DNA from: Cyclobacteriaceae bacterium
GTDB taxonomy: Bacteria; Bacteroidota; Bacteroidia; Cytophagales; Cyclobacteriaceae
Direction: 5' to 3'
Length of the DNA: 64,000 nucleotides
Assembly (NCBI GenBank): GCA_041689935.1
Contig: JBDNFI010000012.1
Location: forward strand, 5,483-69,482
The first letter of the stretch is position 1; each line of letters begins with the position of its first letter. Of the stretch, positions 11,159 to 44,610 are shown in pieces. The notes under the pieces are model-generated. The model saw only the letters and a program-made list of their open reading frames with translations. It searched no databases and had not been told where the DNA came from. The position numbers were made by a program, and so were the translations under genes.

Positions 11159-11701
11159 TCATTCTTTCAATTGATATATATGATTAAGATTTCTGCCTAA
11201 ACCATCATAGTCTAGGCCATACCCTACCACAAATTTATTAGGGATTTCAAAGCCAATGTATTTTATATCCAAAGGCTTTTTCAATGAATCAGGTTTCAAC
11301 AATAAGGTAGCAACGGCTATACTCGCTGCTCCCAATTCTGCAAAATCCTCTAATATTTCTGACATTGTCAATCCAGTGTCTACAATATCTTCTATTATAA
11401 CTAAATGTCTATTAAATACATTTTCTGTTAAGCCAACAAGCTTTTTTATCTCACCAGTACTTTTGGTTTTGTGGTAACTTGCCACCTTGATGAAGGAAAC
11501 TTCAGATTCTATACTTATGTTTCTGACCAAGTCTGATGCAAAAACAAATGAGCCATTGAGAATCCCAACGAAGAGTGGCTTTTTGTCCTGATAATCCTCA
11601 CTAATTTCTTTCGACAATTCACGCACTCTTTTTAGAATCGTATTTTCATCCATATAGATTGAAAATTCCTTGTCTTTCAGCGTAATGAAATTGTTAATCA
11701 T
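11159..11701 (-). CDS. hpt: Hypoxanthine phosphoribosyltransferase
   Basis: PRPP-binding motif VIIEDIVDTGLT. The C-terminal block is VVGYGLDY. Confidence 0.92.
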   Translation of the reverse strand: MINNFITLKDKEFSIYMDENTILKRVRELSKEISEDYQDKKPLFVGILNGSFVFASDLVRNISIESEVSFIKVASYHKTKSTGEIKKLVGLTENVFNRHLVIIEDIVDTGLTMSEILEDFAELGAASIAVATLLLKPDSLKKPLDIKYIGFEIPNKFVVGYGLDYDGLGRNLNHIYQLKE

Positions 11702-11819
11702 TAGTTACAATAAGTTTTTTAGAGAATTAATTTGATTGATTCTTCCAATAAATGGCGAAATTACAAACTATTTGCAGAAGAACGATGTCCGAGTGTGATT
11801 AGATTAAAAGCGGGAGGAA

Positions 11820-28617: not shown

Positions 28618-29433
28618 GTGAAAAAAATTAATTTTGTAGTAATAATTAGCTTTTTTATTTTGTCAAACAATGCTTTTGGTCAGGAGAGCGTGCGAACCAC
28701 AATTTCTATTGGAACCAATCTTTCACTATCTACCATCAATGACAAGGGGATGAGTTCTATTCAGTATGATGGATTTATTCCTAGTATTCACTCGCGTTTG
28801 GAAAGGCGTAAAGTTAATTCTATATCAACGTTCTTTATTAGTGGTGAAAAAGGAATATTAACTCCAAAAGGGAATAAAAATGGAAAAATTGGAACTGCAA
28901 ATCAGAATGGTTTTACTGCAAATTATTCTTATCTGAGGAAAATAAATTTAACGCAAAAAAGATGGGCAATTTACACCGGGTTGCAACTTGGGACACTTCT
29001 GAGAAGCAGATTGCACAACAACTTAGTAAATAGTGCTAGAATTTACGAAAATATCAATCACATTGGTCCAGCAATATATGTTGAAAGGAAGATTAATTTG
29101 TTCCAAATGCCTTTAGATATTAGCGTCAGGATGAATGTACCAGTGTTTGCTGCAGTTATTCGACCCTCCGTAACTAATTTGGGAGACTTTCTCGGGAGAA
29201 GAGATGAAGAATTGAAAGACAGATTCCAAGAGCACGGTTTTACATCCTTTGGCAACCTATTAATGATTCAAAATGAAGTGAGTTTAAAATATCAATTGAA
29301 CAAATCGGATGCGCTTGCCATTAACTATTCTTGGCAATACCTTGATTATTCAAAGGTCAATAGCTTACAGTATGCCAGTCAGGTAGTTGGCGTTAGTTAT
29401 GTTAAAGGTCTTTGGTACCAAAAAAATGAATAA
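28618..29433 (+). CDS. Putative outer-membrane beta-barrel protein, function unknown
   Basis: GTG start, signal peptide ending NAFGQ, alternating-hydrophobicity strands and a C-terminal aromatic-rich end. Confidence 0.45.
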   Translation: MKKINFVVIISFFILSNNAFGQESVRTTISIGTNLSLSTINDKGMSSIQYDGFIPSIHSRLERRKVNSISTFFISGEKGILTPKGNKNGKIGTANQNGFTANYSYLRKINLTQKRWAIYTGLQLGTLLRSRLHNNLVNSARIYENINHIGPAIYVERKINLFQMPLDISVRMNVPVFAAVIRPSVTNLGDFLGRRDEELKDRFQEHGFTSFGNLLMIQNEVSLKYQLNKSDALAINYSWQYLDYSKVNSLQYASQVVGVSYVKGLWYQKNE

Positions 29434-30490
29434 TTTATTCCAAAATGTTATGAGTAGATTAATTAAAGTTTCTGGATTAAGAAAAATGAGGTTATTAGTA
29501 ATAATCTTAGTTTTGGGCACATTTACCAGCTGTGAACTCGTGTTGCTTGACGATACACAACCAAACAATCCAGCGGGAAATTTTGATGCCTTGTGGAGTA
29601 TTTTGAATGAGCGATATGCATTCTTTCAAATAAAAAATGTTGATTGGGATTTGACTTACGAAGAGTTCCGACCAAAAATTAATAATGAAATGAGAAATCC
29701 TGAACTCTTTGATGTTTGTTTCGAGATGTTAGAAACCCTTCGGGATGGACATATTTTTTTGAAAGGGGATGCGAACAGACGAGAATATACAGTAGTGCCA
29801 GTATTGGATCAAGGTGTGTTTAGTAAAAATGTGCTTTTCACTACTTACCTGAGAGAACAGACAGAAGAGATTGATGGTGCCATTTATAGAGATTTTAACG
29901 ATATTGGATACCTTTATTATGAGAGTTTTACGGATGATTTTACTCAAAGTGGCCTCGATAAACTCGTAGATAACCTAGCCAACAAAAGAGGATTAATAAT
30001 TGATTTAAGAGGAAACTCTGGAGGAAATCCAAAAAATGCTTTCAGACTTGCAGAGCGTTTGGTGCCTGAACGCAGGGAGGTTATCTACTCGCGAGAGAAA
30101 ACAGGGCCAGGAAGAGAAGATTTTTCTGAAAGAGAAATATTCAGTGTCGACCCAAATTCTAAGCGTTTCGATGGCCCTATTACCATCCTCACAAGTAGTA
30201 TCACCTTCAGTGCAGCTAATTTATTCGTGGCGATAATGCGAAATTTTGATCATGTAACACTTTCGGGTAGACCTACTGGTGGAGGTGGAGGAATTCCTGC
30301 CGTGTTTGAGCTTCCGAATGGCTGGACATTTTCCTATAGTGCATCTCTCATTACAATGCCCGATGGCTATGTGATTGAAAATGGATTCGATCCAGATTTT
30401 TTCGTTCAAATCAGTTCAGGGTTTGTACTGATAGGCAGGGATACCATTCTTGAATTTTCAATCAATAATTTGCGAAATAGGGCGAATTGA
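29426..30490 (+). CDS. S41-family (tail-specific protease-like) peptidase lipoprotein
   Basis: LIIDLRGNSGGNP box and Ser-nucleophile region TSSITFSAANLF. The lipobox is LVLGTFTSC. The start is ambiguous (29387, 29426, 29450 or 29486). Confidence 0.75.
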   Translation: MNNLFQNVMSRLIKVSGLRKMRLLVIILVLGTFTSCELVLLDDTQPNNPAGNFDALWSILNERYAFFQIKNVDWDLTYEEFRPKINNEMRNPELFDVCFEMLETLRDGHIFLKGDANRREYTVVPVLDQGVFSKNVLFTTYLREQTEEIDGAIYRDFNDIGYLYYESFTDDFTQSGLDKLVDNLANKRGLIIDLRGNSGGNPKNAFRLAERLVPERREVIYSREKTGPGREDFSEREIFSVDPNSKRFDGPITILTSSITFSAANLFVAIMRNFDHVTLSGRPTGGGGGIPAVFELPNGWTFSYSASLITMPDGYVIENGFDPDFFVQISSGFVLIGRDTILEFSINNLRNRAN

Positions 30491-31398
30491 AATTTCTATT
30501 TGCCATAGCGTTTTCAATCCTTTTTGTAGCCTCATGTACCGCTCCGAAGGAAAAGGAAATTGGGTATAGAGCTGTTGATTTCGAAAGATTTGGTGATTAC
30601 TGGTATAAAGGGAAAGCCGAGCTAAATGCCTACCACCTCTCCCAATTCCGCTATGGCCAAGTAGTAGAAGGAGAGGCCGTTTTAATTTTTGTGACAGAGG
30701 ATTTTTCTCGTAGCAAAAAGGTGAAAGTGGATGAGATTGACAATGAAGATATGGCTCAAGTAAAGGTGATGAAACTAAATGCCACCCGCGATTTTCTTAC
30801 TGGAATATATCCTTATCATCTGATGTCCTCTACCTTTACACCCATTTACGGGGATGAGCAAAGTTTAAAAATAACCGCCTCCTCACAAGAATGGTGTGGG
30901 CAATCTTTTACCTTGATAGAGCGGGAGGATAAAGATTTCAACGCTATTCTTCATTCATATTTCGAGTCAGAAGCAAACTATTCTTCCACAATTTCTGGAG
31001 TACTGGAAGATGAGCTATGGAATTTAATTCGCCTAAATCCAGATCTACTGCCACAGGGTGAATTTATGGCTGTGCCGGGCGTGCTATCCCAGCGTATGTC
31101 GCATGCCGAATTGATGCCGTACAAAGCAAATGCAGAATTGGTTGATTCAGGAATAGAATTTATGGAAGTAGATCGCCCAACAAAAAAATATAGTATTCAA
31201 TATCCCGAAATAGGGCGAGAGTTAATGATTTATTTTACTGCTTCATTCCCCTTTGAAATCTTGGCTTGGGAAGAAAAAGCATCCTTCCGGGATCAAGCGT
31301 ATACTCGCGCCATCCGCAAAGGGAATTTGATGCTAGACTACTGGAAAAGAAACGCCCCAGCAGATACCGTTTGGAGAGATTCGTTGAAGTTGCGATGA
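30487..31398 (+). CDS. Lipoprotein of unknown function; its last 126 nt are duplicated at 34717-34842
   Basis: The TTG start overlaps the previous stop and the lipobox is FVASC. I recognise no family motif. Confidence 0.6.
   Translation: MKFLFAIAFSILFVASCTAPKEKEIGYRAVDFERFGDYWYKGKAELNAYHLSQFRYGQVVEGEAVLIFVTEDFSRSKKVKVDEIDNEDMAQVKVMKLNATRDFLTGIYPYHLMSSTFTPIYGDEQSLKITASSQEWCGQSFTLIEREDKDFNAILHSYFESEANYSSTISGVLEDELWNLIRLNPDLLPQGEFMAVPGVLSQRMSHAELMPYKANAELVDSGIEFMEVDRPTKKYSIQYPEIGRELMIYFTASFPFEILAWEEKASFRDQAYTRAIRKGNLMLDYWKRNAPADTVWRDSLKLR
31273..31398 (+). repeat. Copy A of a diverged direct repeat (partner at 34717-34842)
   Basis: Codon-by-codon alignment of the last 42 codons of the 30487-31398 gene with 34717-34842 shows 105/126 identical nt. 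Both copies end in TGA. Confidence 0.85.
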
Positions 31399-31753
31399 AG
31401 CCCACATTTCATTGGGAATTATTTTACTGATTTTAGAAATTACTGAATTTACTGTTTGGAATCCGAGTAATTCACTCATTACATAAAAAAACTACATTTT
31501 ATTGCTCATTTTAAGGCTTTTATCTATATAAAGATTCGTGCAAAATTTGCTTTCTTAATCAACAGTAATGACTCTTTGTAAATGATAATAAATCACTAAG
31601 CATCCTTCAAAAATGAATTCTTTATCCGGCCTCTTAGAAACAAAAGTTTGGTTAAAGAATAATTTGAACCTGTTTTGTTGTTTGAAAAATAACTGTTGAA
31701 ATATTAGTATTAATCATATTTTTTTTTATAATTTAACTCAGCAATTAAATAAA

Positions 31754-32002
31754 ATGAAAAGAATAAAGCTGTTATTAATTTTGTTTATTATTTCATTATT
31801 TTGATTAAGTTTAAATGCTGATCCATGTGGAGATAAGTGTAAGCAAGATTTAACTATCAATGCTAATGGTTATTGTAATACCACGCTAATCATGTGTCAT
31901 GAATCTTCAACTGGTGAAGTTTATGTAATGCGGTGCACTATAATTGTGCCTCATATTAATGCTGAGGAAAAAAGGTGCAAACGCCCTCTTTGGATGGAAT
32001 AA
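31754..32002 (+). pseudogene. Small Cys-rich secreted peptide gene interrupted by an in-frame TGA (codon 17)
   Basis: The ATG at 31754 gives MKRIKLLLILFIISLF-TGA(31802-31804)-LSLNADPCGDKCKQDLTINANGYCNTTLIMCHESSTGEVYVMRCTIIVPHINAEEKRCKRPLWME, ending in a stop at 32000-32002. It is a paralogue of the next ORF: both share D-x-CG-x-x-C, GY.C and M.C spacing. Confidence 0.6.
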
Positions 32003-32020
32003 TTTTAAACGTAATAAATT

Positions 32021-32257
32021 ATGAAAAAATTAATTCTATTTTTTGCAACAATAACACTTTATTTAGCATTTCCTAATGAATTGAAAAGTGGAGATTGTGG
32101 AGCTTCTTGTAGTTATACTCCATTTGACTTTGGGTATGAATGTAGAGAGGTTTTATATCTTTTTAATGGTCAATTTTATTGGGTAAATATGTGTGTGTCA
32201 GATACTATTCTTACTCCATTTAATAAGGTTGGAAATTGTATTATTCAAATCAAATAG
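32021..32257 (+). CDS. Small Cys-rich secreted peptide (78 aa)
   Basis: It has a signal peptide (MKKLILFFATITLYLAF) and a mature part with 5 Cys, including GDCGASC. It lies directly upstream of the two paralogous lipoprotein genes. Confidence 0.6.
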   Translation: MKKLILFFATITLYLAFPNELKSGDCGASCSYTPFDFGYECREVLYLFNGQFYWVNMCVSDTILTPFNKVGNCIIQIK

Positions 32258-32304
32258 TAAAAAAATCATTCATTTTTATGATAGATAATTTTTAGTCTAA
32301 CTTA

Positions 32305-33465
32305 TTGCTTTTACTTAGTTTTCTATTCTTAGTAAGCTGTAATTCCAGTAAAGGAATAGAGGATCCGTTAAAAGTTAAGGTGAATGAAGCGACGTATCTT
32401 TTAGGGGAGGAAAAGTTAGTGCTTCCGTTAGACTATGAATCGGGTGTTGATTCTTATATTAGGGGATACGTGGATTTTGACAGATATTTCTTCTATAATA
32501 AAAGCAATAAAAGTATATATACATACTTATTACGAGACTCCCTTTTCGAACTCGAATACATTACCCAAGTTCCTTTGAGTTTGGATAGCCATTTACAAAG
32601 AGTTGCTGAAGTATATTATCATAATACAGATTCGATTTTCGTTTTTGATGATCGTAATTTATATGGGGATCGTCCTGATTTGTTTCTTATCAATGTAAAT
32701 GGAGAGATACTTAATTCCTATAAACTTTCTAATGTCACGAATGGTGATGTAATGAAACTCGATAGACTGTATACGATTACAGGTCCCACTGTGTACTATC
32801 ATAAAGGTAAAATTTATATGGCCACAAGTTTGAGCGACCAAACGACCAAGGAAAATTTGAAACCTCTTTTGATTTATGATTTAGTTACAGGCGAAAAGAC
32901 ACTTCGTGGGGAATTCCCCTTGCTCCCCACTACTCCAATTTTTGGTCAATTTACTTACTCTTTTCAGTTTGTGTTTGTTCCAGATAGAGAAGAATTATAT
33001 TTCTCATGGGCTTATGAATCAGACTTATATCGTTATAGCTTGGTGAAGGATACTTGGGAAAAATTTAGATTTAGTGCAGATGAGTTTTCTAGGCCAGATG
33101 AAATGACTAAAAGGGACAATCTGCGATCCTATACTGAGTCTAACTCTTGGTTTTACGGCGTTTTTTACGATTACAAAACTAAAAGATTGCATAGACAATT
33201 GCTTTCTAGTCTTACTGAATTTAGCCCAACGATGAGTTCATCTAATTTGGTTCAAGGCTTGGTATTGACTCCTGATGAACAACGAATGGTTGTTTATAGT
33301 ATTGATATAGAAACAGGAAACTATGATGTAGTACATGGGTTTAGTCATTTTAGGACAATATTGTTTCACCCACGCCTCGGCCCTCTAATGCAAACACAGT
33401 TAAATGAATCTTACAACCTAGATGTAGAAGATTACTTAATTTTAGCCCCTATTGTTATTCAATAA
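32305..33465 (+). CDS. Lipoprotein, paralogue 1 (possibly beta-propeller/DUF4221-like; unverified)
   Basis: TTG start and lipobox FLVSC. It shows clear homology to the next ORF: YYHNTDSIFVFD vs CYHNQDSIFVYD, GPTVYYHKGKIYMA vs GPTMIYHKGNMYFS, and YFSWAYESDLYRY vs YFSYAYDSDLYVF. Confidence 0.7.
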   Translation: MLLLSFLFLVSCNSSKGIEDPLKVKVNEATYLLGEEKLVLPLDYESGVDSYIRGYVDFDRYFFYNKSNKSIYTYLLRDSLFELEYITQVPLSLDSHLQRVAEVYYHNTDSIFVFDDRNLYGDRPDLFLINVNGEILNSYKLSNVTNGDVMKLDRLYTITGPTVYYHKGKIYMATSLSDQTTKENLKPLLIYDLVTGEKTLRGEFPLLPTTPIFGQFTYSFQFVFVPDREELYFSWAYESDLYRYSLVKDTWEKFRFSADEFSRPDEMTKRDNLRSYTESNSWFYGVFYDYKTKRLHRQLLSSLTEFSPTMSSSNLVQGLVLTPDEQRMVVYSIDIETGNYDVVHGFSHFRTILFHPRLGPLMQTQLNESYNLDVEDYLILAPIVIQ

Positions 33466-33484
33466 TTTTACAATTTCATTAATT

Positions 33485-34660
33485 ATGCGATTATTTTTAT
33501 CCTTTTTGATTCTTGCAATTGTACTTACAGTTGCATTTGCCTGTTCAAATTTGGAGGAGGCATATGAAGTAAAAATTACTAATAAGAAGGTTCAGGTAGG
33601 AGACATGTTGATTGGGATTAAATTAGATTCTGTCAGTGGATCCTACTACAAAATAAAGGGAATTACTCCGCTAAATGAATATTATTATTTTAATCCCTAC
33701 AATTTAAGTATTTATCTATATGACTTAACCGACAGTATCAATGATGTTAAGAAAAGAATAAGAATTCCGTTGGATGCCTCAATCAATTTCCGCAATGTAG
33801 ACGATATCTGCTATCATAATCAGGACTCAATATTTGTATATGATAACTCAAATGAAGAGGGCTCGAATGCTGACTTATTTTTATTGAATGGGGAGGGAGC
33901 TATTGTCAATTCATTTAATGTTTTTGACCTGAGTCAAGGTGATCCTATGAGGGTTCCAAAGGATAATGTTTTTAACGGGCCAACGATGATTTACCATAAA
34001 GGGAATATGTATTTTTCTGCATTGCCAACTAGTAGGACCAACTCTGATAAAATTGCGCCCTTATTGAAATACAACTTAGCAAAAAGAGAACGAAGTCTTT
34101 TGGGAGATTTTGAAATAAAAATACCAGATTCTTATCATTACGTACAATTTACCATGAATGGTTTTATTGATTTCAATCCGAAGACAGAAAAGATATATTT
34201 TTCCTACGCTTATGATTCTGATTTATATGTTTTTGATATCAATAAGCAAGAATGGAAAACGCTTAGGTTCATGGCTGATCTGTTCAGAAGTCCAGATGGT
34301 ATTGGTACAGCTGAGGTTATTCCTTATATACAAGAAAATACATGGTTTATGTACCTAATGGTTGACCCTAGAGATAATACGGTGCTTAGAAAACTCTCTA
34401 TCCCAAATGATGCTTCATTGCCTGATGACTTTGATAACAATTCGATGCTCCCGCCACCGTTATTTAATCAGTGGTTATTCAAAATTGATCCAAATACAGG
34501 TGATTATGTTCAAGTTTCTGATTTTGACTTGCGTAAAGTAAGGTTTATTCATCCGAAATGGGGACCTATGATTACCGTTCAAGTAAATTACGATTCTTTA
34601 GGTCTTGATCCTCAAGATTATATATTCTTCTCGCCAGTTGATTTTTCTGGTCCTGAATAG
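33485..34660 (+). CDS. Lipoprotein, paralogue 2
   Basis: The ATG at 33485 gives MRLFLSFLILAIVLTVAFAC (lipobox). The track start at 33452 overlaps the previous gene. It is homologous to 32305-33465 along its whole length. Confidence 0.7.
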   Translation: MRLFLSFLILAIVLTVAFACSNLEEAYEVKITNKKVQVGDMLIGIKLDSVSGSYYKIKGITPLNEYYYFNPYNLSIYLYDLTDSINDVKKRIRIPLDASINFRNVDDICYHNQDSIFVYDNSNEEGSNADLFLLNGEGAIVNSFNVFDLSQGDPMRVPKDNVFNGPTMIYHKGNMYFSALPTSRTNSDKIAPLLKYNLAKRERSLLGDFEIKIPDSYHYVQFTMNGFIDFNPKTEKIYFSYAYDSDLYVFDINKQEWKTLRFMADLFRSPDGIGTAEVIPYIQENTWFMYLMVDPRDNTVLRKLSIPNDASLPDDFDNNSMLPPPLFNQWLFKIDPNTGDYVQVSDFDLRKVRFIHPKWGPMITVQVNYDSLGLDPQDYIFFSPVDFSGPE

Positions 34661-34716
34661 ATTTGATTGAAATTCTAGATAACAATTAATCAACAAATTT
34701 TCTCTTAATTAGTATT

Positions 34717-34842
34717 GAAAAATCATCCTCCCGCGATCAAATATATACGCGTGCCACCCGCAAAGGCGATTTGATGCTAGATTATTGGAAAAGAAACGCG
34801 CCAGCAGATACAGTTTGGAGAGATTCGTTGAGTATGGATTGA
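34717..34842 (+). pseudogene. Orphan 3-prime fragment (42 codons) homologous to the end of the 30487-31398 gene
   Basis: It translates EKSSSRDQIYTRATRKGDLMLDYWKRNAPADTVWRDSLSMD-stop, against EKASFRDQAYTRAIRKGNLMLDYWKRNAPADTVWRDSLKLR-stop for the intact gene. There is an in-frame stop at 34687-34689 and no start upstream. Confidence 0.8.
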
Positions 34843-34904
34843 TTTCCCAATTCTAAGCTGATACTACTTCATCAAGCTTCATCATCAATAAAGCATTTAT
34901 CGAA

Positions 34905-35870
34905 TTAAAAATTCTGAGCTAAATAGAAATATAGTGGCATCCCAACAGTAATGTTTATCGGAAAGGTAACCGCCAGAGCCATTGGCAAGAATAAACCAGG
35001 GTTAGCTTCAGGCACAGATATTTTCATGGCAGCAGGTACAGCAATATAAGAAGCACCAGCGGCTAAGATGGCAAACAAGAATCTATTGCCTAGATCATCG
35101 GTAACTACTGAACTTATAATGGCAACGATGCTGCCATTAACCAATGGTATTACTATCGCAAAAATGAGCGGGAACCAGCCAAATGAAAAGAATGCTTTCA
35201 ATTTCCTACCACTTGTTATGCCCATATCCAACAGAAAGATTGCCAAAAACCCTTTGAACAAATCATTGGTGAAAGGTTCTATCCCTTCTGCTTGTTGCGC
35301 ATTTGCCAAATATCCAATGATCAAACTCCCCAGAATAAGCAACACGCTGCCGTTGGTAAATGAATGACGGAGGACGGCGATTTTGCTAATACTTTTATTC
35401 GAAGTTTCCTTATTGAAAATTGTGAGTAGCACTAGCCCAACAATAATCGCTGGCGACTCCATTAAGGCCATAATAGCAACCATATGCCCCTGTGCAACTA
35501 ATTGTTGCGATTCTAGAAATGATACTGCCGTCACAAAAGTAACCGCACTGACCGAACCATAAGCCGCTGCGACGGCTGCCGAATCATACACATTTAATTT
35601 TATTTTGAGTATCAAAAATGTGTAAACTGGAATGATCACTGCGATGGTCATACCAAACAACATTGACCAGCCTATTTCACTTGTAATAGCTTCGTGAGAT
35701 AATTCTTGACCTCCTTTAAAACCTATGGCAAAAAGTAGATAAAGAGAAATGAATTTCGATGAATTGGACGGTATTTCTAAATCACTTTTTAAATAAACAG
35801 CAATTATCCCAAGTACAAAAAACAATAAAGCAGGATTGGTTAGATTTTCAATAAGTAGGCTGAAATTCAT
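34905..35870 (-). CDS. Sodium-dependent bicarbonate transporter family permease (SbtA/DUF897-like)
   Basis: 321 aa with 10 TM-like segments. The N-terminus NPALLFFVLGIIAVYLKSDLEIP....KFISLYLLFAIGFKGG is typical of this family. Assignment is from memory. Confidence 0.65.
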   Translation of the reverse strand: MNFSLLIENLTNPALLFFVLGIIAVYLKSDLEIPSNSSKFISLYLLFAIGFKGGQELSHEAITSEIGWSMLFGMTIAVIIPVYTFLILKIKLNVYDSAAVAAAYGSVSAVTFVTAVSFLESQQLVAQGHMVAIMALMESPAIIVGLVLLTIFNKETSNKSISKIAVLRHSFTNGSVLLILGSLIIGYLANAQQAEGIEPFTNDLFKGFLAIFLLDMGITSGRKLKAFFSFGWFPLIFAIVIPLVNGSIVAIISSVVTDDLGNRFLFAILAAGASYIAVPAAMKISVPEANPGLFLPMALAVTFPINITVGMPLYFYLAQNF

Positions 35871-36444
35871 CTTTTATGTTCTGTAGGCAAGTCTGATTTT
35901 TAAAAAGAACCAAGGTACTCATTTCCTCGGAAAATTATTTATTGGAAATCCGATAGGAACGATCGCTTAGGTTACTCAAATCTATCCATTATTGTTTAGG
36001 GCAATGGGAATTAAATTCTTTTAGACCTTTTTTATTGATGCCGCATGTTTCTCTGAACGAGTTTTACTTGCTTTTGCCTCCATTAGGGTTTGCATGTGTT
36101 TTTCAACCTCCCGCTTAGGATTTAGCATTCTGTTGCGAGCTATTCGATCTTCTCACTCAATGCGCTCTATTGAAATAAAGTTTTTCAATTAGGGTAATTG
36201 ATTGACCTTAAGCCAACATTCAATAAGATTTGCACAACTTCTTCATCTGAAAATTGGGTTAAATTCAATCTCAACAAACTCATTCAGGAAGTCCAAAGGG
36301 TTTACAAGCTCAAAACCAGAGCTTCCGATGGGATTGCTTGCTATTCGGCAATCATTTCCGTGAATTTTTCTGGGACTAAAACGAAAAAAAATATCCGAAT
36401 GCAAACTCTTCATAGTTGCATCCGGATATAATTAGTTGCTGATG

Positions 36445-37881
36445 TTACTGACCTTGCCCTAAAGAATAGGCGGCTTTTCCATCAAATGAATAGAGATTTT
36501 CCGTTTTGATAGTGTCAATATTTTCCTTGATCGAATTATTCAAAAGATCAATGATGGAAGATTTATTGAAAGCAGCACCTTGGGTAGGCTCAAATCTACA
36601 TCTCCAATGATCTGTACAAAAAGTTTCTTTAAACCCATTTGGCCAAACTTTGATGCCTCTATTGGTGATCATCTTCAGTTTGATATGGTCACTTTCTATC
36701 GTTTTTAGTTTATCAGCAAGTTCGTTTGGCTCAAGCCCATTCCAATGCACAAACACATCCACACCTACTAGTTGTTTATTGGCAGCTGGTCTGCGTTTAT
36801 ATTTTGGAAGCGACAAGGCCGAATCTGAAGCATAAGAAGCTTGTTTAAGAATGGTCGGCCTTTGGCCAAGATTGCCAATGACCGCTTGAGCAAATTCCTT
36901 CGTTCCTACTTTTGACGTGCTTAAGCCTTCCCCGTAAATATCAGCTGTATGAATGCCCTGCTCTAGGGTAAGCAACCATGCATTTTGGATGGTTTCGGCT
37001 ATCGACGATTGCCCGATATGATTCAACATCATAACGGCACCTTGCAATAGGCCTGAAGGATTAGCGATATTTTTTCCGCCAATATCTGGAGCCGTTCCAT
37101 GGATGGCTTCGAACATAGAGCACTCCTCTCCAATATTTGAAGAGCCTCCCAAACCAACTGAACCTGTGATTTCGGCGGCGATATCCGAAATAATATCGCC
37201 GTATAAATTTGGCATTACAAGTACATCAAATCTTTCTGGCGATTCGGCCACTTTAGCCGCTCCGATATCCACAATCCAATGCTCTTTAGTGATTTCAGGG
37301 TATTCCTCTGCGATTTCATCAAACACTTGGTGAAACAAACCATCCGTTTGTTTCATAATATTATCTTTTGTGAAGCAGGTTACCTTTTTGCGGTTTTGTT
37401 GCGTAGCATATTCAAAAGCATATCGAACAATTTTTTCACAACCAGGACGGCTGATCAATTTTAGGCATTGTACCACTTCATCAGTTTGTTGATGTTCAAT
37501 ACCTGCATATAAGTCTTCCTCATTTTCCCTTATAATGACCAAATCCATTTTAGGATGCTTGGTTTGAATGATAGGGTGCAAACTCATGCAGGGCCTTACA
37601 TTAGCATATAGTCCAAGGAATTTGCGGGTGGTTACATTTAAGCTCTTGTAGCCGCCACCTTGTGGAGTGGTAATAGGTGCTTTCAAAAAGATTTTGTTAC
37701 GTCTGATTACGTCCCAAGAATCAGCACTAATTCCGGAGGTGTTTCCAGCCAAGTAAACCTTTTCGCCAACCTGTATTTCTTCAATTTCAATTTTTGCTCC
37801 CGCTGCCAAAAGTATTTCTAATGTGGCATCCATAATTTCTGGGCCAATTCCATCACCTTTTGCTATCGTAATTTTTGTCAT
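36445..37881 (-). CDS. icd: Isocitrate dehydrogenase (NAD(P)-dependent) with a C-terminal extension of about 120 aa
   Basis: IAKGDGIGPEIMDA, the NLYGDIISD metal/substrate motif and HGTAPDI. The ATG at 37881 (MTKITIAKGDG) is preferred to the track start at 37911. Confidence 0.9.
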   Translation of the reverse strand: MTKITIAKGDGIGPEIMDATLEILLAAGAKIEIEEIQVGEKVYLAGNTSGISADSWDVIRRNKIFLKAPITTPQGGGYKSLNVTTRKFLGLYANVRPCMSLHPIIQTKHPKMDLVIIRENEEDLYAGIEHQQTDEVVQCLKLISRPGCEKIVRYAFEYATQQNRKKVTCFTKDNIMKQTDGLFHQVFDEIAEEYPEITKEHWIVDIGAAKVAESPERFDVLVMPNLYGDIISDIAAEITGSVGLGGSSNIGEECSMFEAIHGTAPDIGGKNIANPSGLLQGAVMMLNHIGQSSIAETIQNAWLLTLEQGIHTADIYGEGLSTSKVGTKEFAQAVIGNLGQRPTILKQASYASDSALSLPKYKRRPAANKQLVGVDVFVHWNGLEPNELADKLKTIESDHIKLKMITNRGIKVWPNGFKETFCTDHWRCRFEPTQGAAFNKSSIIDLLNNSIKENIDTIKTENLYSFDGKAAYSLGQGQ

Positions 37882-39728: not shown

Positions 39729-41036
39729 TTATGCATTGAGGTCTAATAGAGTGGAGGCAATATCCTCCCGCAGTTTTACGGTAATTTCTACCTCTTTGGC
39801 AAAGCTCGCCCATTGATTCACGGTTTCATTAATTTCATCAATTATTTGTGATGCTTTTTTACATCGGATGGATTTCCCAATGACCATCAAATCTGTTTTA
39901 GTAATATTTTTCCTTTTACCATTTACGCTCAAAGCATGCTGACTTACCCATTCGCTACCTGGCCTGTAAGCATGGCAAATATCATAGGCAGGAGCCAACT
40001 CCCATTTGCTATTTTGTTTTAGTAGGAATGAGAAATTCTTGGTATGGTCGTCACAATTACGAGCGATTACATTAAACACCATTCTTCTAAACATCTGTTC
40101 GGCATCAGTATAGCTCAGTTTTAACTCACGCATACACTGAAAAAGCTGCTCATAACTAAAGCTATTTACGAGGTTGAAATCGAAATGCTTTAAAGCGCAA
40201 AAGGTTTGAACATGGTATTTTGCCTCGCCACCTGCCCGGTCGAAACGCTTAGTCATAAAATGAGCCCGACCATTTTCTTCCAAAAGGCGGGAGGGCATCA
40301 TCTCTATGCCACATTTTGTTGCCATGTTGAAGTAGGCCATTTCTACTCTTCCATACCCTTTGCTTGAGCCTAATTGCACATCGCTTACGCCATCTAGTTT
40401 AATCAGCCAATGCTCGTAACCCTTAGGGGCTTTGGTTTGGCCTGATTTTACTTCTCCAGTTTTTTCGTTCCACGCTATTACTGCCTTTGGACGAGCACCA
40501 CCGGCAGAAGTGCCAATTTTCAAAATATCCAAAACCGCTTCTTTTTCTTCTTTATTTAGGTTGGTGGTAAATGCCTCCCGTAGGTTGAGCATTTTTTGGG
40601 CGGTAGCAACCAAGCTATCAATTTCTATGGAGAATGAGCGCTTGGTTTCGGTGAACATAACTGGTTCAAATTCCAATGCCCCCATACCACGAGTGCCGAT
40701 GAAACACAGCATTTCCACCGGATTCATACTGTCTTGTGGGCGACCTTGCTGTGCCAGCCAAAGGTTAATCATTTGATTCCCGTATTTATCAGGCAATGCA
40801 TCGGCTAATAGACCGGGTAAGCCTTTGAAGGTGTCGTTTTCTGGGTCTCTATCTTTTCGCAATTCTGGAAATGAAAATTGATTCCTATTATCGGAAATAG
40901 GCATTTTGAGTGGCGACAAATCCCAGCCTAATTGCCTGAATTTGGGGTCATATTCAAAAGTAGCATAGCCTGTTTCTGGAGCCCAGGCAATAGCGCCAAC
41001 TAATTCACCCCATATTTTTACTTCTGCTACTTGCAT
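39729..41036 (-). CDS. hipA: Type II toxin HipA (Ser/Thr kinase)
   Basis: 435 aa with the N-terminal coupling domain (VWG..VG.I). Kinase core: GGARPKA loop and catalytic DDHTKNFSF. Confidence 0.92.
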   Translation of the reverse strand: MQVAEVKIWGELVGAIAWAPETGYATFEYDPKFRQLGWDLSPLKMPISDNRNQFSFPELRKDRDPENDTFKGLPGLLADALPDKYGNQMINLWLAQQGRPQDSMNPVEMLCFIGTRGMGALEFEPVMFTETKRSFSIEIDSLVATAQKMLNLREAFTTNLNKEEKEAVLDILKIGTSAGGARPKAVIAWNEKTGEVKSGQTKAPKGYEHWLIKLDGVSDVQLGSSKGYGRVEMAYFNMATKCGIEMMPSRLLEENGRAHFMTKRFDRAGGEAKYHVQTFCALKHFDFNLVNSFSYEQLFQCMRELKLSYTDAEQMFRRMVFNVIARNCDDHTKNFSFLLKQNSKWELAPAYDICHAYRPGSEWVSQHALSVNGKRKNITKTDLMVIGKSIRCKKASQIIDEINETVNQWASFAKEVEITVKLREDIASTLLDLNA

Positions 41037-41741: not shown

Positions 41742-42599
41742 TCAATATTTCTGTTTGCTTGGGATTACGCCTCTAATTCCACCCGTTGGATCATCTACGT
41801 CACCGCCATATCGCGGAATTAAGTGGATATGAACATGGTCAATAGTTTGTCCAGCTTTACTTCCGATGTTTATGCCAATATTAAATCCATCAGGTTCAAA
41901 TCGTATTTTTAAAAGCTCCTTGACTTTATTGAGAACAAACCAGCAAGCAGATTGCTCTTTAAATGTTAAATCAAAATAATTGGCACAATGCTTTTTGTGG
42001 ATAATTAATGTGTGCCCTTTATTCACTGGATATTTATCAAATATGGCATATACCATCGCAGATTCAAGAATTAGCTCGCTTTCTGATTCTGGATTACAAA
42101 ATGGGCACCCTATATTTTCGACTCGACTAATTTGATTAAAATGTCTGTACTCATAGATTTCACAATTATCATTTCTGTAAAAGGATTTTGAATTTAAAAT
42201 CACATTACACTGATAAGTTTGCTTTTGATGAATTTTATGAGTTCTAAAACCTTCAAATTGCAGATCCCTCCTAACTGCGATATAAACTTTTCCAGTTGGT
42301 TTTACTAATTGAGATAGCTCCATCAAAACAATAGCTTGCTCCTCTGGTAGGAGTACATTCAATACGTAAAAGCAAAGTATTGTATCAAACTTTCTTTTTG
42401 GGTATTCGGGAAAATAATGCTTGTCGTACCCAGTAATATCAATTCCTTTTTCTTTCATCAACTCAACGTCTTTTCCAAAACCACACCCGAAATCCAATAC
42501 TTCTCCTTTTAGCAAATTCTTATTTAAAAGGAGTTTTGCTGGGAACGAAAGAGCATGTCTTTCTTTAGCGGTGAGGTGATTATAATTATTGAATCCCAT
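41742..42599 (-). CDS. Fusion protein: class I SAM-dependent methyltransferase (N) + histidine-triad (HIT) nucleotide hydrolase/transferase (C)
   Basis: MTase motif I is VLDFGCGFGKD and the post-I motif is ITGYD. The HIT domain starts at CPFCNP..., continues with PVNKGHTLIIHKKH and has the triad IDHVHIHLIPR. Its ATG shares a base with the upstream stop (TAATG). Confidence 0.8.
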   Translation of the reverse strand: MGFNNYNHLTAKERHALSFPAKLLLNKNLLKGEVLDFGCGFGKDVELMKEKGIDITGYDKHYFPEYPKRKFDTILCFYVLNVLLPEEQAIVLMELSQLVKPTGKVYIAVRRDLQFEGFRTHKIHQKQTYQCNVILNSKSFYRNDNCEIYEYRHFNQISRVENIGCPFCNPESESELILESAMVYAIFDKYPVNKGHTLIIHKKHCANYFDLTFKEQSACWFVLNKVKELLKIRFEPDGFNIGINIGSKAGQTIDHVHIHLIPRYGGDVDDPTGGIRGVIPSKQKY

Positions 42600-43645
42600 T
42601 ATTTCATAAATTCAAAGCCATTGTTTGATGCAATTGTGATTAATGGTTGTACGTTTTCAAGAAATTTTTCTTTGGAAAAGCCCTGATTTTGATCTGGGAA
42701 GATTGTTAAGTAGTCTTGAAGTATTGTATTATTTGGGCTATTGTGCTTTACAATATCAAATGCAATTTTTTGTAAATTGAAAAATGAATCAAAATACAAA
42801 TCAAGAGGTGGGAGTTTGTTACCCTTTGAGCTATTGTATGATTTGTCTGCAGGAATTAAATTCCAAATTAAATCGTGGGAGACAAAACTATAAGGAATGA
42901 AATGTTCGAGAGCATAATTTCCCTTACAGAGATCTTTTCCTGTATAGATGCATTTAACTGATCCAATTTCTTTAATAACTAAATCCCAAAATTGAGATTT
43001 TTGCCGATTTAAGCTATTCCTTTTAGCGGCCTTAATCAATTTATTTGGTATGTCAGGTACATTAGGGTTTTTTGATTGAAGAAACAAGGCAAGATTCCAA
43101 TAACAAAAACCTTTAATTACTCCTGTTGCTTTTTTTAAATATTTAATCCATTGAGGGTTAATAATAATGTGATCGTCAAACAGAGCATATAAGCACCAGT
43201 TATTAAAATCCTCAGACTCTGAATAAATTCGTTTCGATCTTTGAAAGTCAGTTTCACCTTTCAATTTCGGAAACCAAGGCGTTAGAAACCAATGCGGAAC
43301 ATTGTTATTATAATGTTTAAGTATCTTTAAGGTGTCACTATTTGTTGTCCTTGATAATTTTTGGAAAACCAATGGTTGTCTTTCATCAATGGAAATTTGT
43401 TCAATTTCTTTTATATCTCGTATTGAATCTTGCTTTCCAAAGGAAACCTGAAAGTAGTTTACCGTATGCCATGCATTAGAAATCATTCTTGCAAATAAAT
43501 CCTTTTTCGCAATTTTTGATTGTCCCATTTCAATTTCTTCTAAAATGGATATTAGCCAATAAAACTTATATGTTGCAGATGTCTTATTAAAACAAGCAGC
43601 AAGAATGTTTATTGGCAACTCTTTTGAATCAGGTAAGTTGCTCAT
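42599..43645 (-). CDS. HNH (His-Me finger) nuclease-domain protein with an unassigned N-terminal region of about 250 aa
   Basis: The C-terminal motif is ALEHFIPYSFVSHDLIWNLIPADKSYNSSKGNK (H...H..WNL.P....N..K). The ORF is open to 43693. The ATG at 43645 lies one nt after the upstream TGA. Confidence 0.75.
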   Translation of the reverse strand: MSNLPDSKELPINILAACFNKTSATYKFYWLISILEEIEMGQSKIAKKDLFARMISNAWHTVNYFQVSFGKQDSIRDIKEIEQISIDERQPLVFQKLSRTTNSDTLKILKHYNNNVPHWFLTPWFPKLKGETDFQRSKRIYSESEDFNNWCLYALFDDHIIINPQWIKYLKKATGVIKGFCYWNLALFLQSKNPNVPDIPNKLIKAAKRNSLNRQKSQFWDLVIKEIGSVKCIYTGKDLCKGNYALEHFIPYSFVSHDLIWNLIPADKSYNSSKGNKLPPLDLYFDSFFNLQKIAFDIVKHNSPNNTILQDYLTIFPDQNQGFSKEKFLENVQPLITIASNNGFEFMK

Positions 43646-43646
43646 T

Positions 43647-44504
43647 TCAAACTCTGATTTCATTCGTCTCATATTCCTTAAGTGTTTTGCCACTTTTAAG
43701 TTTCCATTCTGTTAGACCATTTGCATTTCGCCCTAGAACAATAGAGGCTGCAGTAGAGGGGCTGCTAAAAATGTAGTCCTCAGGAAAATCTAAAAATTCC
43801 TTTCTATCAATTAGTACGCCTTCGTCAATTAGTTTTTGGCGAAATGTTACAAAATTTTGTGTCATCGAAACCACAATGGAACCCGCAGCTTTTGAACCTT
43901 TAAATACGACAAACCCATCAGAACTTGGCTGTCCTTTGCCATCAGATCCTCGTGCAGATTTAATGAAAAATGTATCTTGCTGTTGTTTAGGTCTAAATTC
44001 TCTTTTTTCATCAAATACTTTATGGCCTAAAGTGTTAACCAACATTTTGATGTATTCTATAAACTCTTCCATCTCAGCTCTATCAGGTTCTGAAATTGAC
44101 GATTGAGTTGGAATTATAGAATTATCAACTTTATATCGATTGGCAATTTTCGCGATGTCGTGGAGTCTATTTTCTAAGTATTTGATATGAGCCTTATTTA
44201 AGTTCTCATCTTTGCTGATAAATACTATTGCTTCGTTCCAAAAATCTTTCTGAGTTAGTTGTTGATTAAGGCGTTTCAATATGGATTCAGCTTCACCAAT
44301 ATATACTTGATCTTTTCCTTCATCATCCTTCCCAAATAACAAGTAAACCCCAGTACTGGTCAGGTCATCTCGGTCTACGCAGTCCTTAATTTTTATTCTT
44401 GGAATTTTATAAGCTTTGCCTGACCAGTTAGAAAGTTCACAGCTCATCCTTCCATTTGGATCTCCATCAATGAGAAATATCTTTATTGTTTTACCGAATT
44501 TCAT
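43647..44504 (-). CDS. GIY-YIG nuclease-domain protein with a DUF4357-like C-terminal domain
   Basis: The GIY-YIG core is GVYLLFGK-x9[13 protein letters not shown]...NEA. The C-terminal block is [23 protein letters not shown]. The ATG at 44504 is preferred to the TTG at 44525. Confidence 0.75.
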
Positions 44505-44610
44505 TTTGGAAATGTTGTCTACCAATAAAACTACCTCTTTTCACTCAAAAAATAAAATAGCAGAAAGCCATAATTGTAGGAGTTCCCAAGCTCAACGCCT
44601 AAAAAAGCAA

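Follow-up and report, generated by a model that had tools for sequence, protein, structure and literature searches.

Prophages, integrative and conjugative elements and genomic islands integrate at the 3' end of a tRNA gene or a protein-coding gene and bring with them a substitute for that end. Campbell-type integration, in which circular DNA enters by a single crossover, is known mainly from laboratory constructs and from co-integrates of plasmids with chromosomes. Flexible genomic islands occupy conserved loci and are exchanged by recombination in their core-gene flanks, usually with no duplicated gene fragment. C-terminal displacement and orphan arrays in Rhs, contact-dependent inhibition (CDI) and type VI secretion system (T6SS) effector-immunity loci have been attributed to homology-facilitated illegitimate recombination (Kirchberger et al. 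2017, PMC5361080). Here we describe a locus of Cyclobacteriaceae bacterium that can be compared with each of these systems. In a 64,000-nucleotide stretch of contig JBDNFI010000012.1 (assembly GCA_041689935.1; hereafter the window), the segment from 31399 to 34716 is a strain-variable accessory cassette with genes for exported proteins, and it lies between two diverged copies of the 3' end of a lipoprotein gene. We lean towards an origin by recombination into this gene end, in which the cassette segment carried its own diverged copy of that end.

Like elements that integrate at 3' ends, the cassette is associated with direct repeats of the target end, an intact target gene, a displaced native end on the far side, and reuse of the site. 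However, no integrase or excisionase is present, the cargo amounts to only 2.8-3.3 kb, and the repeats are long, diverged and of varying length. The likeness to displacement at Rhs, CDI and T6SS loci lies in the arrival of a gene 3' region together with new genes, in anchoring by homology, in the start-less orphan left downstream, and in the lack of a dedicated integrase. In contrast to those loci, the duplicated end is a part of the protein that is conserved across the clade and only 42 codons are displaced. Moreover, both repeat copies look chimeric in a cassette-bearing relative (L070; compared loci carry L numbers), a pattern more readily explained by a reciprocal crossover than by a single illegitimate end-join. 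We also considered a polymorphic toxin locus, and scans with Pfam, NCBIfam and PADLOC found no toxin or immunity family at the cassette. Campbell-type integration predicts the exact pattern of L070 (native-imported, cargo, imported-native) as well as reversible loss through the repeats. Flexible islands share with this locus presence or absence at a fixed position, deviant composition, surface cargo and linked divergent alleles of neighbouring genes (here the S41 classes described below), whereas the junctions in our case are marked by a 126-nt gene-end repeat. Taken together, we would class the cassette as an accessory islet that lacks a recombinase and was probably inserted by homologous recombination at a gene end.

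The cassette and its bracketing repeat

The locus is composed of the following features, given by window position and strand.

29387-30490, plus strand: S41 peptidase gene (Tricorn_C1 and Peptidase_S41; Pfam PF03572 at 1e-28, PF14684), the conserved left neighbour
30487-31398, plus strand: lipoprotein gene, the target; 303 amino acids, TTG start, lipobox FVASC, no named family
31273-31398, plus strand: in-gene repeat copy, the last 42 codons (41 sense codons and TGA) of the lipoprotein gene
31399-31753, no strand: AT-rich stretch at the left end of the cassette; 355 nt, no open reading frame (ORF)
31754-32002, plus strand: 'small A', a pseudogene for a small Cys-rich secreted protein; in-frame TGA at 31802-31804
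32021-32257, plus strand: 'small B', a gene for a small Cys-rich secreted protein; 78 amino acids, 5 Cys
32305-33465, plus strand: gene for the first divergent DUF4221-type beta-propeller lipoprotein; 386 amino acids, lipobox LVSC
33485-34660, plus strand: gene for the second, paralogous DUF4221-type beta-propeller lipoprotein; 391 amino acids from the ATG at 33485
34661-34716, no strand: spacer of 56 nt between the last cassette gene and the orphan
34717-34842, plus strand: orphan copy of the last 42 lipoprotein codons, in frame, ending in TGA, with no start
34905-35870, minus strand: sbtA-like transporter gene (PF05982), the conserved right neighbour

The two gene ends form an ungapped direct repeat of 115 nt with 87% identity (31273-31387 versus 34717-34831; blastn E = 2e-35). 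When the repeat is extended to both TGA stop codons (31273-31398 versus 34717-34842), 105 of 126 nt match in frame, exactly as the first-pass annotation of this DNA had reported. The in-gene copy is highly identical to the orphan from 31273 to 31387, and its final 11 nt are diverged. Mismatches are dispersed over the whole repeat, and the longest run free of them measures 19 nt. Immediately to the left of the copies there is no similarity (GTATT versus GGGAA), no microhomology is apparent at the 34716/34717 junction, and the spacer at 34661-34716 shows no similarity to the lipoprotein gene sequence upstream of 31273. In-frame stops 9 and 21 codons upstream leave the orphan with no usable start, and its frame differs from that of the preceding gene. 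The sbtA stop codon is 62 nt from the orphan stop; when the orphan region is folded as a 3' untranslated region of sbtA, no fold signal is obtained (z = 0.27).

This structure is not an assembly artefact, because an independent assembly (L061) is identical throughout and two more assemblies of the same organism agree in the parts that they cover (L076 at 100%, L075 with one mismatch).

The cassette measures 3318 bp. Its GC content of 31.9% (window, 39.5%) is the lowest of any 3.3-kb stretch in the 64 kb, and its tetranucleotide composition is the most deviant, and so the AT-richness relative to the flanks that had been seen by inspection turns out to be the minimum of the window. The claim that the cassette begins with 355 bp of non-coding DNA holds in that no ORF is found at 31399-31753, but the pseudogene that follows at 31754-32002 had been missed. 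This AT-rich stretch has no counterpart in the relatives L070 and L074.

Searches with Pfam, NCBIfam, PADLOC and PHROGs, covering the intact cassette ORFs and the neighbouring genes from 21992 to 47224, revealed no recombinase or transposase domain. The cassette carries no terminal inverted repeats, nor does any inverted repeat pair its ends. Rfam models gave no structured RNA over 31000-36500, and no promoter or terminator enrichment was found at the locus. No matches to the cassette occur in viral contigs, plasmids or PHROGs, and a metagenome scan recovered it from the window's own species only.

Empty and occupied sites in relatives

The target lipoprotein has no Pfam or NCBIfam match, and a PDB sequence search was also empty. 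Nevertheless it has 3270 homologues at E <= 1e-40, among which Cytophagales predominate, and the position of its gene is syntenic across all relatives compared. The lipoproteins of the closest sampled relatives are about 79% identical to that of the window. An empty site had been anticipated in related strains, and it is present in four lineages: L001 (Cytophagales bacterium SYC-11), L002 (a Roseivirgaceae metagenome-assembled genome, MAG), L062 and L068/L069. These carry the S41, lipoprotein and sbtA genes, two small genes, ICDH and LysR, and no cassette. Their interval from the lipoprotein gene to sbtA contains either nothing or one convergent gene for 188-198 amino acids, and in L068/L069 sbtA lies 11 nt after the intact lipoprotein gene.

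The event is not a one-off confined to this genome. At least two further lineages, L070/L071 and L073/L074, have the two propeller genes in this position, and in both a fragment of the lipoprotein gene again lies to the right of the cassette. The propeller genes of L073/L074 are about 89% identical to those of L070/L071. The cassettes of L070, L071 and L074 contain propeller genes only and no recombinase, and the three cassette versions extend over 2.8-3.3 kb and are cargo throughout. In all three cassette-bearing lineages the rebuilt lipoprotein gene stops at the ancestral codon position, with the endings KLR*, NLK* and NLQ* compared with the native NLR*.

The lipoprotein 3' end was also considered as a general insertion hotspot, which it is not across 60 related loci. 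The only extra copy of the gene end in these loci (L033 3578-3768, an Emticicia MAG) is a 33-nt perfect duplication flanking a run of N, and is a scaffolding artefact.

The most informative comparison is within a near-isogenic pair, L070/L071, which have the cassette, and L001, which does not. Their upstream DNA is 95% identical and their downstream DNA 97.8% identical, and the proteins of sbtA, ICDH and LysR are 98.7-99.4% identical. The in-gene end of L070 matches L001 with 2 mismatches in 137 nt up to ...GAATTTGA, which is 5 nt before the gene end, and past this point it diverges into cassette DNA. On the far side, the L070 orphan becomes identical to L001 again from AGATACCGTTTGG... onwards, and the identity extends past the stop codon into the DNA that follows. 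A stretch of 36 nt (35/36) is common to both L070 junctions. From this colinearity, the 3' part of the L070 orphan and the DNA downstream of it are the native gene end, and by analogy the 3' part of the window orphan and its downstream flank would be native as well.

To the left of the 36-nt stretch, the orphans of L070, L073 and L074 consist of decayed lipoprotein-gene sequence. This left part carries a 27-nt deletion and many substitutions, and is thus much older than the right part. Its sequence AGCTTCTCGCAAAGTAAATTGTGCTG aligns to AGCTATTCGCAAAGGTAAATTGATGCTG of the gene. This local alignment is significant for L074, where 4 of 2000 shuffles reach its score, and less so for L073 (76/2000) and L070 (141/2000). 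No significant continuation of the repeat past the stop codon into the left flank of the cassette was found (L070, 150/3000 shuffles; L074 and the window, none). Judged from these alignments, both L070 copies look chimeric around the 36-nt stretch, and the arrangement matches in detail the pattern left by a single reciprocal crossover with a circular molecule or by an equivalent pair of exchanges.

The first-pass annotation had proposed that a foreign segment carrying a gene end and the cassette displaced the native end. The colinearity of L070 and L001 upholds this proposal in outline, but not its corollary that the in-gene copy is wholly foreign and the orphan wholly native. In L070 it is the in-gene copy that is nearly identical to L001, and the left part of the orphan that is decayed.

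Differences between genomes with and without the cassette extend into the S41 gene. The S41 proteins of the window and L070 are 76% identical, whereas the window and the cassette-free relatives share 63-68%. The corresponding protein identity between L070 and L001 is 63%, and because these two also differ across the adjacent S41 region, the L070/L001 polymorphism may be a larger haplotype than the cassette. The S41 gene and a gene for a 271-amino acid protein, both upstream of the lipoprotein gene (window 28618-30490; L070 5400-7600), fall into two deeply diverged allele classes. The cassette-bearing window and L070 share one class (class II), and the cassette-free L001, L002, L062 and L068 have the other. 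The S41 and 271-amino acid alleles and the cassette may therefore form a linked surface haplotype, with n = 2.

Divergence between the two window copies

The two window copies differ at 16 codons, of which eight carry synonymous changes and eight carry non-synonymous changes (13 nt). The eight synonymous changes are exactly those listed when the repeat was first noticed. Nei-Gojobori estimates are 0.47 for dS and 0.134 for dN, and the resulting dN/dS is 0.29 for the whole repeat; it is 0.16 for the first 38 codons. The synonymous excess over neutrality is significant both for the whole repeat (p = 0.02) and for the first 38 codons (p = 0.0015), consistent with the coding-like divergence that had been inferred by inspection. 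When the orphan is compared with L001, its dN/dS is 0.11-0.20, as for an orthologue. These coding-like ratios indicate that the orphan has been mostly coding through its history. An old duplication that has been refreshed by recombination is a less probable but conceivable origin of the two copies.

Identity between the copies is 105/126, and that of each copy to L001 is 104/126. In the left half of the repeat 48/59 positions match, so that the copies are no more alike there than the sequences of different species. In the right half 52/56 positions match, and lineage-specific states are common to both copies (GGAAAAGAAACGC, versus GGAAACGCAACTCA in L001, L002 and L070; other relatives differ again).

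Origin of the cassette

In the origin that we favour, a diverged copy of the gene end would travel with the cassette and recombine with the end of the resident lipoprotein gene, either by a single crossover with a circular intermediate or by an equivalent pair of exchanges. In the left repeat, the sequence as far as the exchange point would then be native and the remainder would come with the cassette, which would supply the last codons and the stop codon. In the right repeat the order would be the reverse, with cassette-borne sequence before the exchange point and native sequence after it. On the left, a full-length gene would be rebuilt that terminates at the ancestral codon, and on the right a start-less orphan of 42 codons would remain beside the native neighbour sbtA. 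Because the cassette encodes no recombinase, host homologous recombination after DNA uptake or transfer is the likely agent of the exchange. The direct repeats would also allow the cassette to be lost later, or the repeats to be refreshed, by further recombination. This account draws on the repeat, the empty sites, the presence/absence polymorphism with its junctions inside the gene end, the colinearity of the orphan in the sister species, the deviant composition and the coding-type divergence. From these observations we infer the direction of the event (a gain), the enzyme system, and the native parts of each copy in this genome.

Several points weigh against this account. We saw neither a donor nor a circular form, nor any mobility function. 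The cassettes of the window and L070 are 74-75% identical at the nucleotide level (74-80% between the window and the other two cassette-bearing lineages together) and the flanks 77-78%, and a cassette whose divergence tracks that of its flanks fits long residence as well as transfer. All three other assemblies of the window's species carry the cassette and no cassette-free genome of this species was found, so that a gain rather than a loss is putative for this genome. The contrast between the left and right halves of the repeat is not significant (Fisher p = 0.096), and a mosaic structure of the window repeat is therefore suggestive only. In a neighbour-joining (NJ) tree of the gene ends, the window copies pair weakly (66% bootstrap on 126 nt) and the tree is poorly resolved. 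If the copies do pair, any donor would be closer to this genome than every sampled relative. Finally, the L070 pattern can arise with no mobility of the cassette, by ordinary flank recombination with cassette-free alleles.

Some of these points are expected if the cassette is an ancient resident whose gene end was duplicated locally, an explanation that we regard as possible though doubtful. The cassette and the duplicated end would have a single origin in a common ancestor, no foreign gene end would be involved, inheritance would be vertical, and the cassette-free genomes would have lost the cassette by deletion between the direct repeats. The orphan would have stayed recognisable because it was refreshed now and then, either through gene conversion by the in-gene copy or when the right flank recombined with alleles that lack the cassette. 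Residence of this kind would account for the shared site in three lineages, for the divergence that tracks the flanks (window to L070, 74-75% versus 77-78%), and for the comparable values of 89% between the cassettes of L074/L073 and L070 and 92-94% between the flanks of L073 and L001. The pairing of the window copies in the NJ tree (66%) points in the same direction. So do the changes in each copy when they are polarised by eye against relatives: those of the in-gene copy are mostly synonymous, and those of the orphan fall at all codon positions, including the last three codons (SMD* versus the family's NLR*). Two details of L070 also agree. A deletion between its 36-nt repeats would recreate the exact L001 sequence, and the left border of the pristine 36 nt coincides with the 27-nt deletion of the orphan, at which a tract that recombined in from the right-hand side would end. 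However, neutral dS between the window and L001 is about 1.4, at which an unrefreshed orphan would be unrecognisable, and so repeated conversion would be needed. Synonymous changes make up 8.7 of the 15 in the first 38 codons, more than the share of about 34% predicted by a history that was neutral for one half (hand calculation, one-sided p about 0.04). In addition, L001 and L070 differ over the whole S41 region (63% protein identity), which does not fit a simple deletion mediated by the repeats, and the unusual base composition of the cassette speaks for its having come, at some time, from outside this genome.

An extension of the favoured origin, which we consider unlikely as formulated, would make the cassette a recombinase-free mobile unit. 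The decoy 3' end of its target would serve as a homology arm for repeated movement in and out of the lipoprotein gene via host RecA alone, and each cycle would refresh the centre of the repeat. The left part of the orphan and the cassette-borne stop region would stay with the element, which would travel in a co-adapted surface haplotype together with the class II S41 and 271-amino acid alleles.

It is very improbable, in our estimation, that the cassette is the remnant or satellite of a site-specific integrative element at the lipoprotein 3' end, with the repeats as attL and attR and the integrase lost or acting in trans. The three cassette versions and the scanned neighbours of the window are free of mobility genes, including those for tyrosine and serine recombinases and excisionases, and there are no matches to viral contigs, plasmids or PHROGs. 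The repeats vary in length by lineage (115-126 nt versus 36 nt plus a decayed part), their mismatches in the window are dispersed with no evident identical core, and the same gene module in another genome (L072) has no such repeats. What such an element would explain is the use of one insertion site in three lineages, the direct repeats that bracket the cargo, the rebuilding of the target gene with its stop at the ancestral position, and the well-preserved 36 nt at the L070 junctions, which lie beside an older arm borne by the element.

Equally hard to sustain is homology-facilitated illegitimate recombination of a linear foreign fragment that was anchored by homology within or upstream of the lipoprotein gene and whose far end joined the chromosome 126 nt before the resident stop codon, which would make the in-gene copy all foreign and the orphan all native. 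Such events are documented in transformable bacteria and have been proposed for T6SS and Rhs orphan arrays (PMC5361080). They would be compatible with the coding-type divergence between the copies and with an orphan that adjoins the native neighbour sbtA, as the gene itself does in L068/L069. The imported tract could also extend leftwards to include the S41 allele class that the window shares with cassette-bearing L070. Yet the comparison of L070 with L001 gives the opposite of the prediction, with a native-like in-gene copy and an orphan whose left part is old and contains indels. Moreover, the right half of the window repeat has lineage-specific states in both copies, and the 34716/34717 junction shows no apparent microhomology.

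A transposon or insertion sequence (no transposase, no terminal inverted repeats, and a diverged repeat of 115-126 nt) and an integron gene cassette (no integrase, four genes, no structured element in 31000-36500) can both be set aside.

The DUF4221-type cargo

Three of the cassette genes are intact, the exception being 'small A'. The translation of this pseudogene was aligned by eye to its homologue, an 82-amino acid Cys-rich protein of L072. The in-frame TGA lies at codon 17 and is found in three independent assemblies, including L061 and L076. The protein encoded by 'small B', a paralogue of 'small A', is 38% identical to an 80-amino acid protein of L072 (tblastn 6e-12). The first propeller is 32% identical to the neighbouring propeller, 67% identical to its counterparts in L071/L074 and 44% identical to that of L072. 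The second propeller might begin at an alternative TTG upstream, at 33452, which would lengthen it to 402 amino acids.

The cargo proteins gave no meaningful match with Pfam, NCBIfam, PADLOC or PHROGs. Neither of the two window propellers matches the DUF4221 model (PF13970) even at E = 10, and both fall below the Pfam gathering threshold. Their relatives are few. The second propeller has 4 non-self homologues among 5.8 billion proteins, and an exhaustive profile search with the cargo family returned 95 representative clusters, 11 of them at E <= 1e-30. A faint precomputed match to PF13970 exists for the 399-amino acid protein of L072. In addition, the cargo-family profile matches seven proteins (P0134, P0135, P0137, P0138, P0140, P0141 and P0150) at E values from 1e-13 to 1e-33, and all of these pass PF13970. 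The AlphaFold model of the second propeller is all-beta and of modest confidence (predicted local distance difference test, pLDDT, 60; predicted template modelling score, pTM, 0.65). Its top PDB match is 3s9j, a DUF4221 protein (BVU_1028), with a template modelling (TM) score of 0.50-0.54. Because the distant profile matches pass PF13970 and the fold matches 3s9j, we assign the cargo lipoproteins to divergent DUF4221-type beta-propellers. Like the DUF4221 lipoproteins of Bacteroidota, they are lipoproteins of about 390 amino acids with an all-beta, repeated fold. They are unlike them in that the subfamily is very small and is paired with small Cys-rich secreted proteins.

The same four-gene module occurs in L072 at an unrelated locus, with genes for an amino-acid permease and a UDP-glucose dehydrogenase on either side, and there it has no gene-end repeats around it. 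A short contig that encodes P0127 has the same order, with a small protein followed by propellers. A lone, distant DUF4221-type paralogue (P0131) is encoded in the genome of L001 (L078 8001-9188), where it follows a BatA/MoxR-type operon, and no small Cys-rich partner genes are called alongside it.

An over-represented octamer and other features of the window

On the two strands of the window together, the octamer CCTCCCGC is present in 41 copies (for example at 748, 1130, 5170 ... 62794), where 0.6 would be expected. It is about equally dense, at 0.4-0.7 per kb, in the closest relatives (L001, L002, L062, L068 and L070). Five more distant relatives were checked and lack it (L003 Cyclobacterium, L008 Belliella, L017 Pleomorphovibrio, L026 a Lewinellaceae MAG, and L035 Emticicia). 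This distribution, dense in close relatives and absent from distant ones, indicates a clade-specific over-represented word. Speculatively, it might serve as an uptake signal or a Chi-like signal.

The octamer had been reported as missing from the cassette, and there is indeed none between 30928 and 34727, so that the cassette holds 0 copies compared with one per 1.6 kb elsewhere. The longer segment 26941-34726, which covers a response regulator gene, the S41 and lipoprotein genes and the cassette, contains a single copy. At the corresponding site of the repeat, the in-gene copy reads CCTTCCGG and the orphan reads CCTCCCGC, and this difference had been taken as a weak sign that the orphan is the native end. 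The marker is uninformative, as CCTCCCGC is also present at this site in L001, L062 and L070. Among the other relatives, L002 has CCTCCCGA and L068 differs. From these alignments, CCTCCCGC at the repeat site is probably ancestral and was lost from the in-gene copy.

Gene content to the right of the lipoprotein gene varies in two further respects. The convergent 188-amino acid gene follows the lipoprotein gene in L002, L062 and L070 and is absent from L068 and the window, and a search for a remnant of it in the window found none. This gene is partly deleted in L001 (L001 10914-11438 compared with L070 11316-11882, of which 11529-11770 is unmatched). The window is also without the two small genes between sbtA and ICDH (91-93 and 130-137 amino acids) that are seen in all relatives; the interval in question is 35871-36444. 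A remnant of the 93-amino acid gene is recognisable on the minus strand at 36051-36253 as two separate tblastn segments.

A second AT-rich and compositionally deviant block (31-35% GC) lies at 41742-44525. Its products are a methyltransferase-HIT fusion, an HNH_4 protein and a DUF4357 protein, and a gene for a HipA-like kinase (39729-41036) is located nearby. This block could be a defence island or an accessory island.

Biological implications

The locus reveals no new mechanism and is a fairly ordinary footprint of gene gain by recombination. Its value is that of a natural example, in which genes are added at a fixed chromosomal spot while the interrupted gene stays intact and no obvious mobile-element machinery takes part. 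The pair formed by L070/L071 and L001, with and without the cassette, fixes the junctions to the base. The cargo is a very rare and uncharacterised four-gene surface module, which combines two small Cys-rich proteins with two DUF4221-type propeller lipoproteins. Its apparent linkage to a divergent S41 allele offers a way into the question of DUF4221 function.

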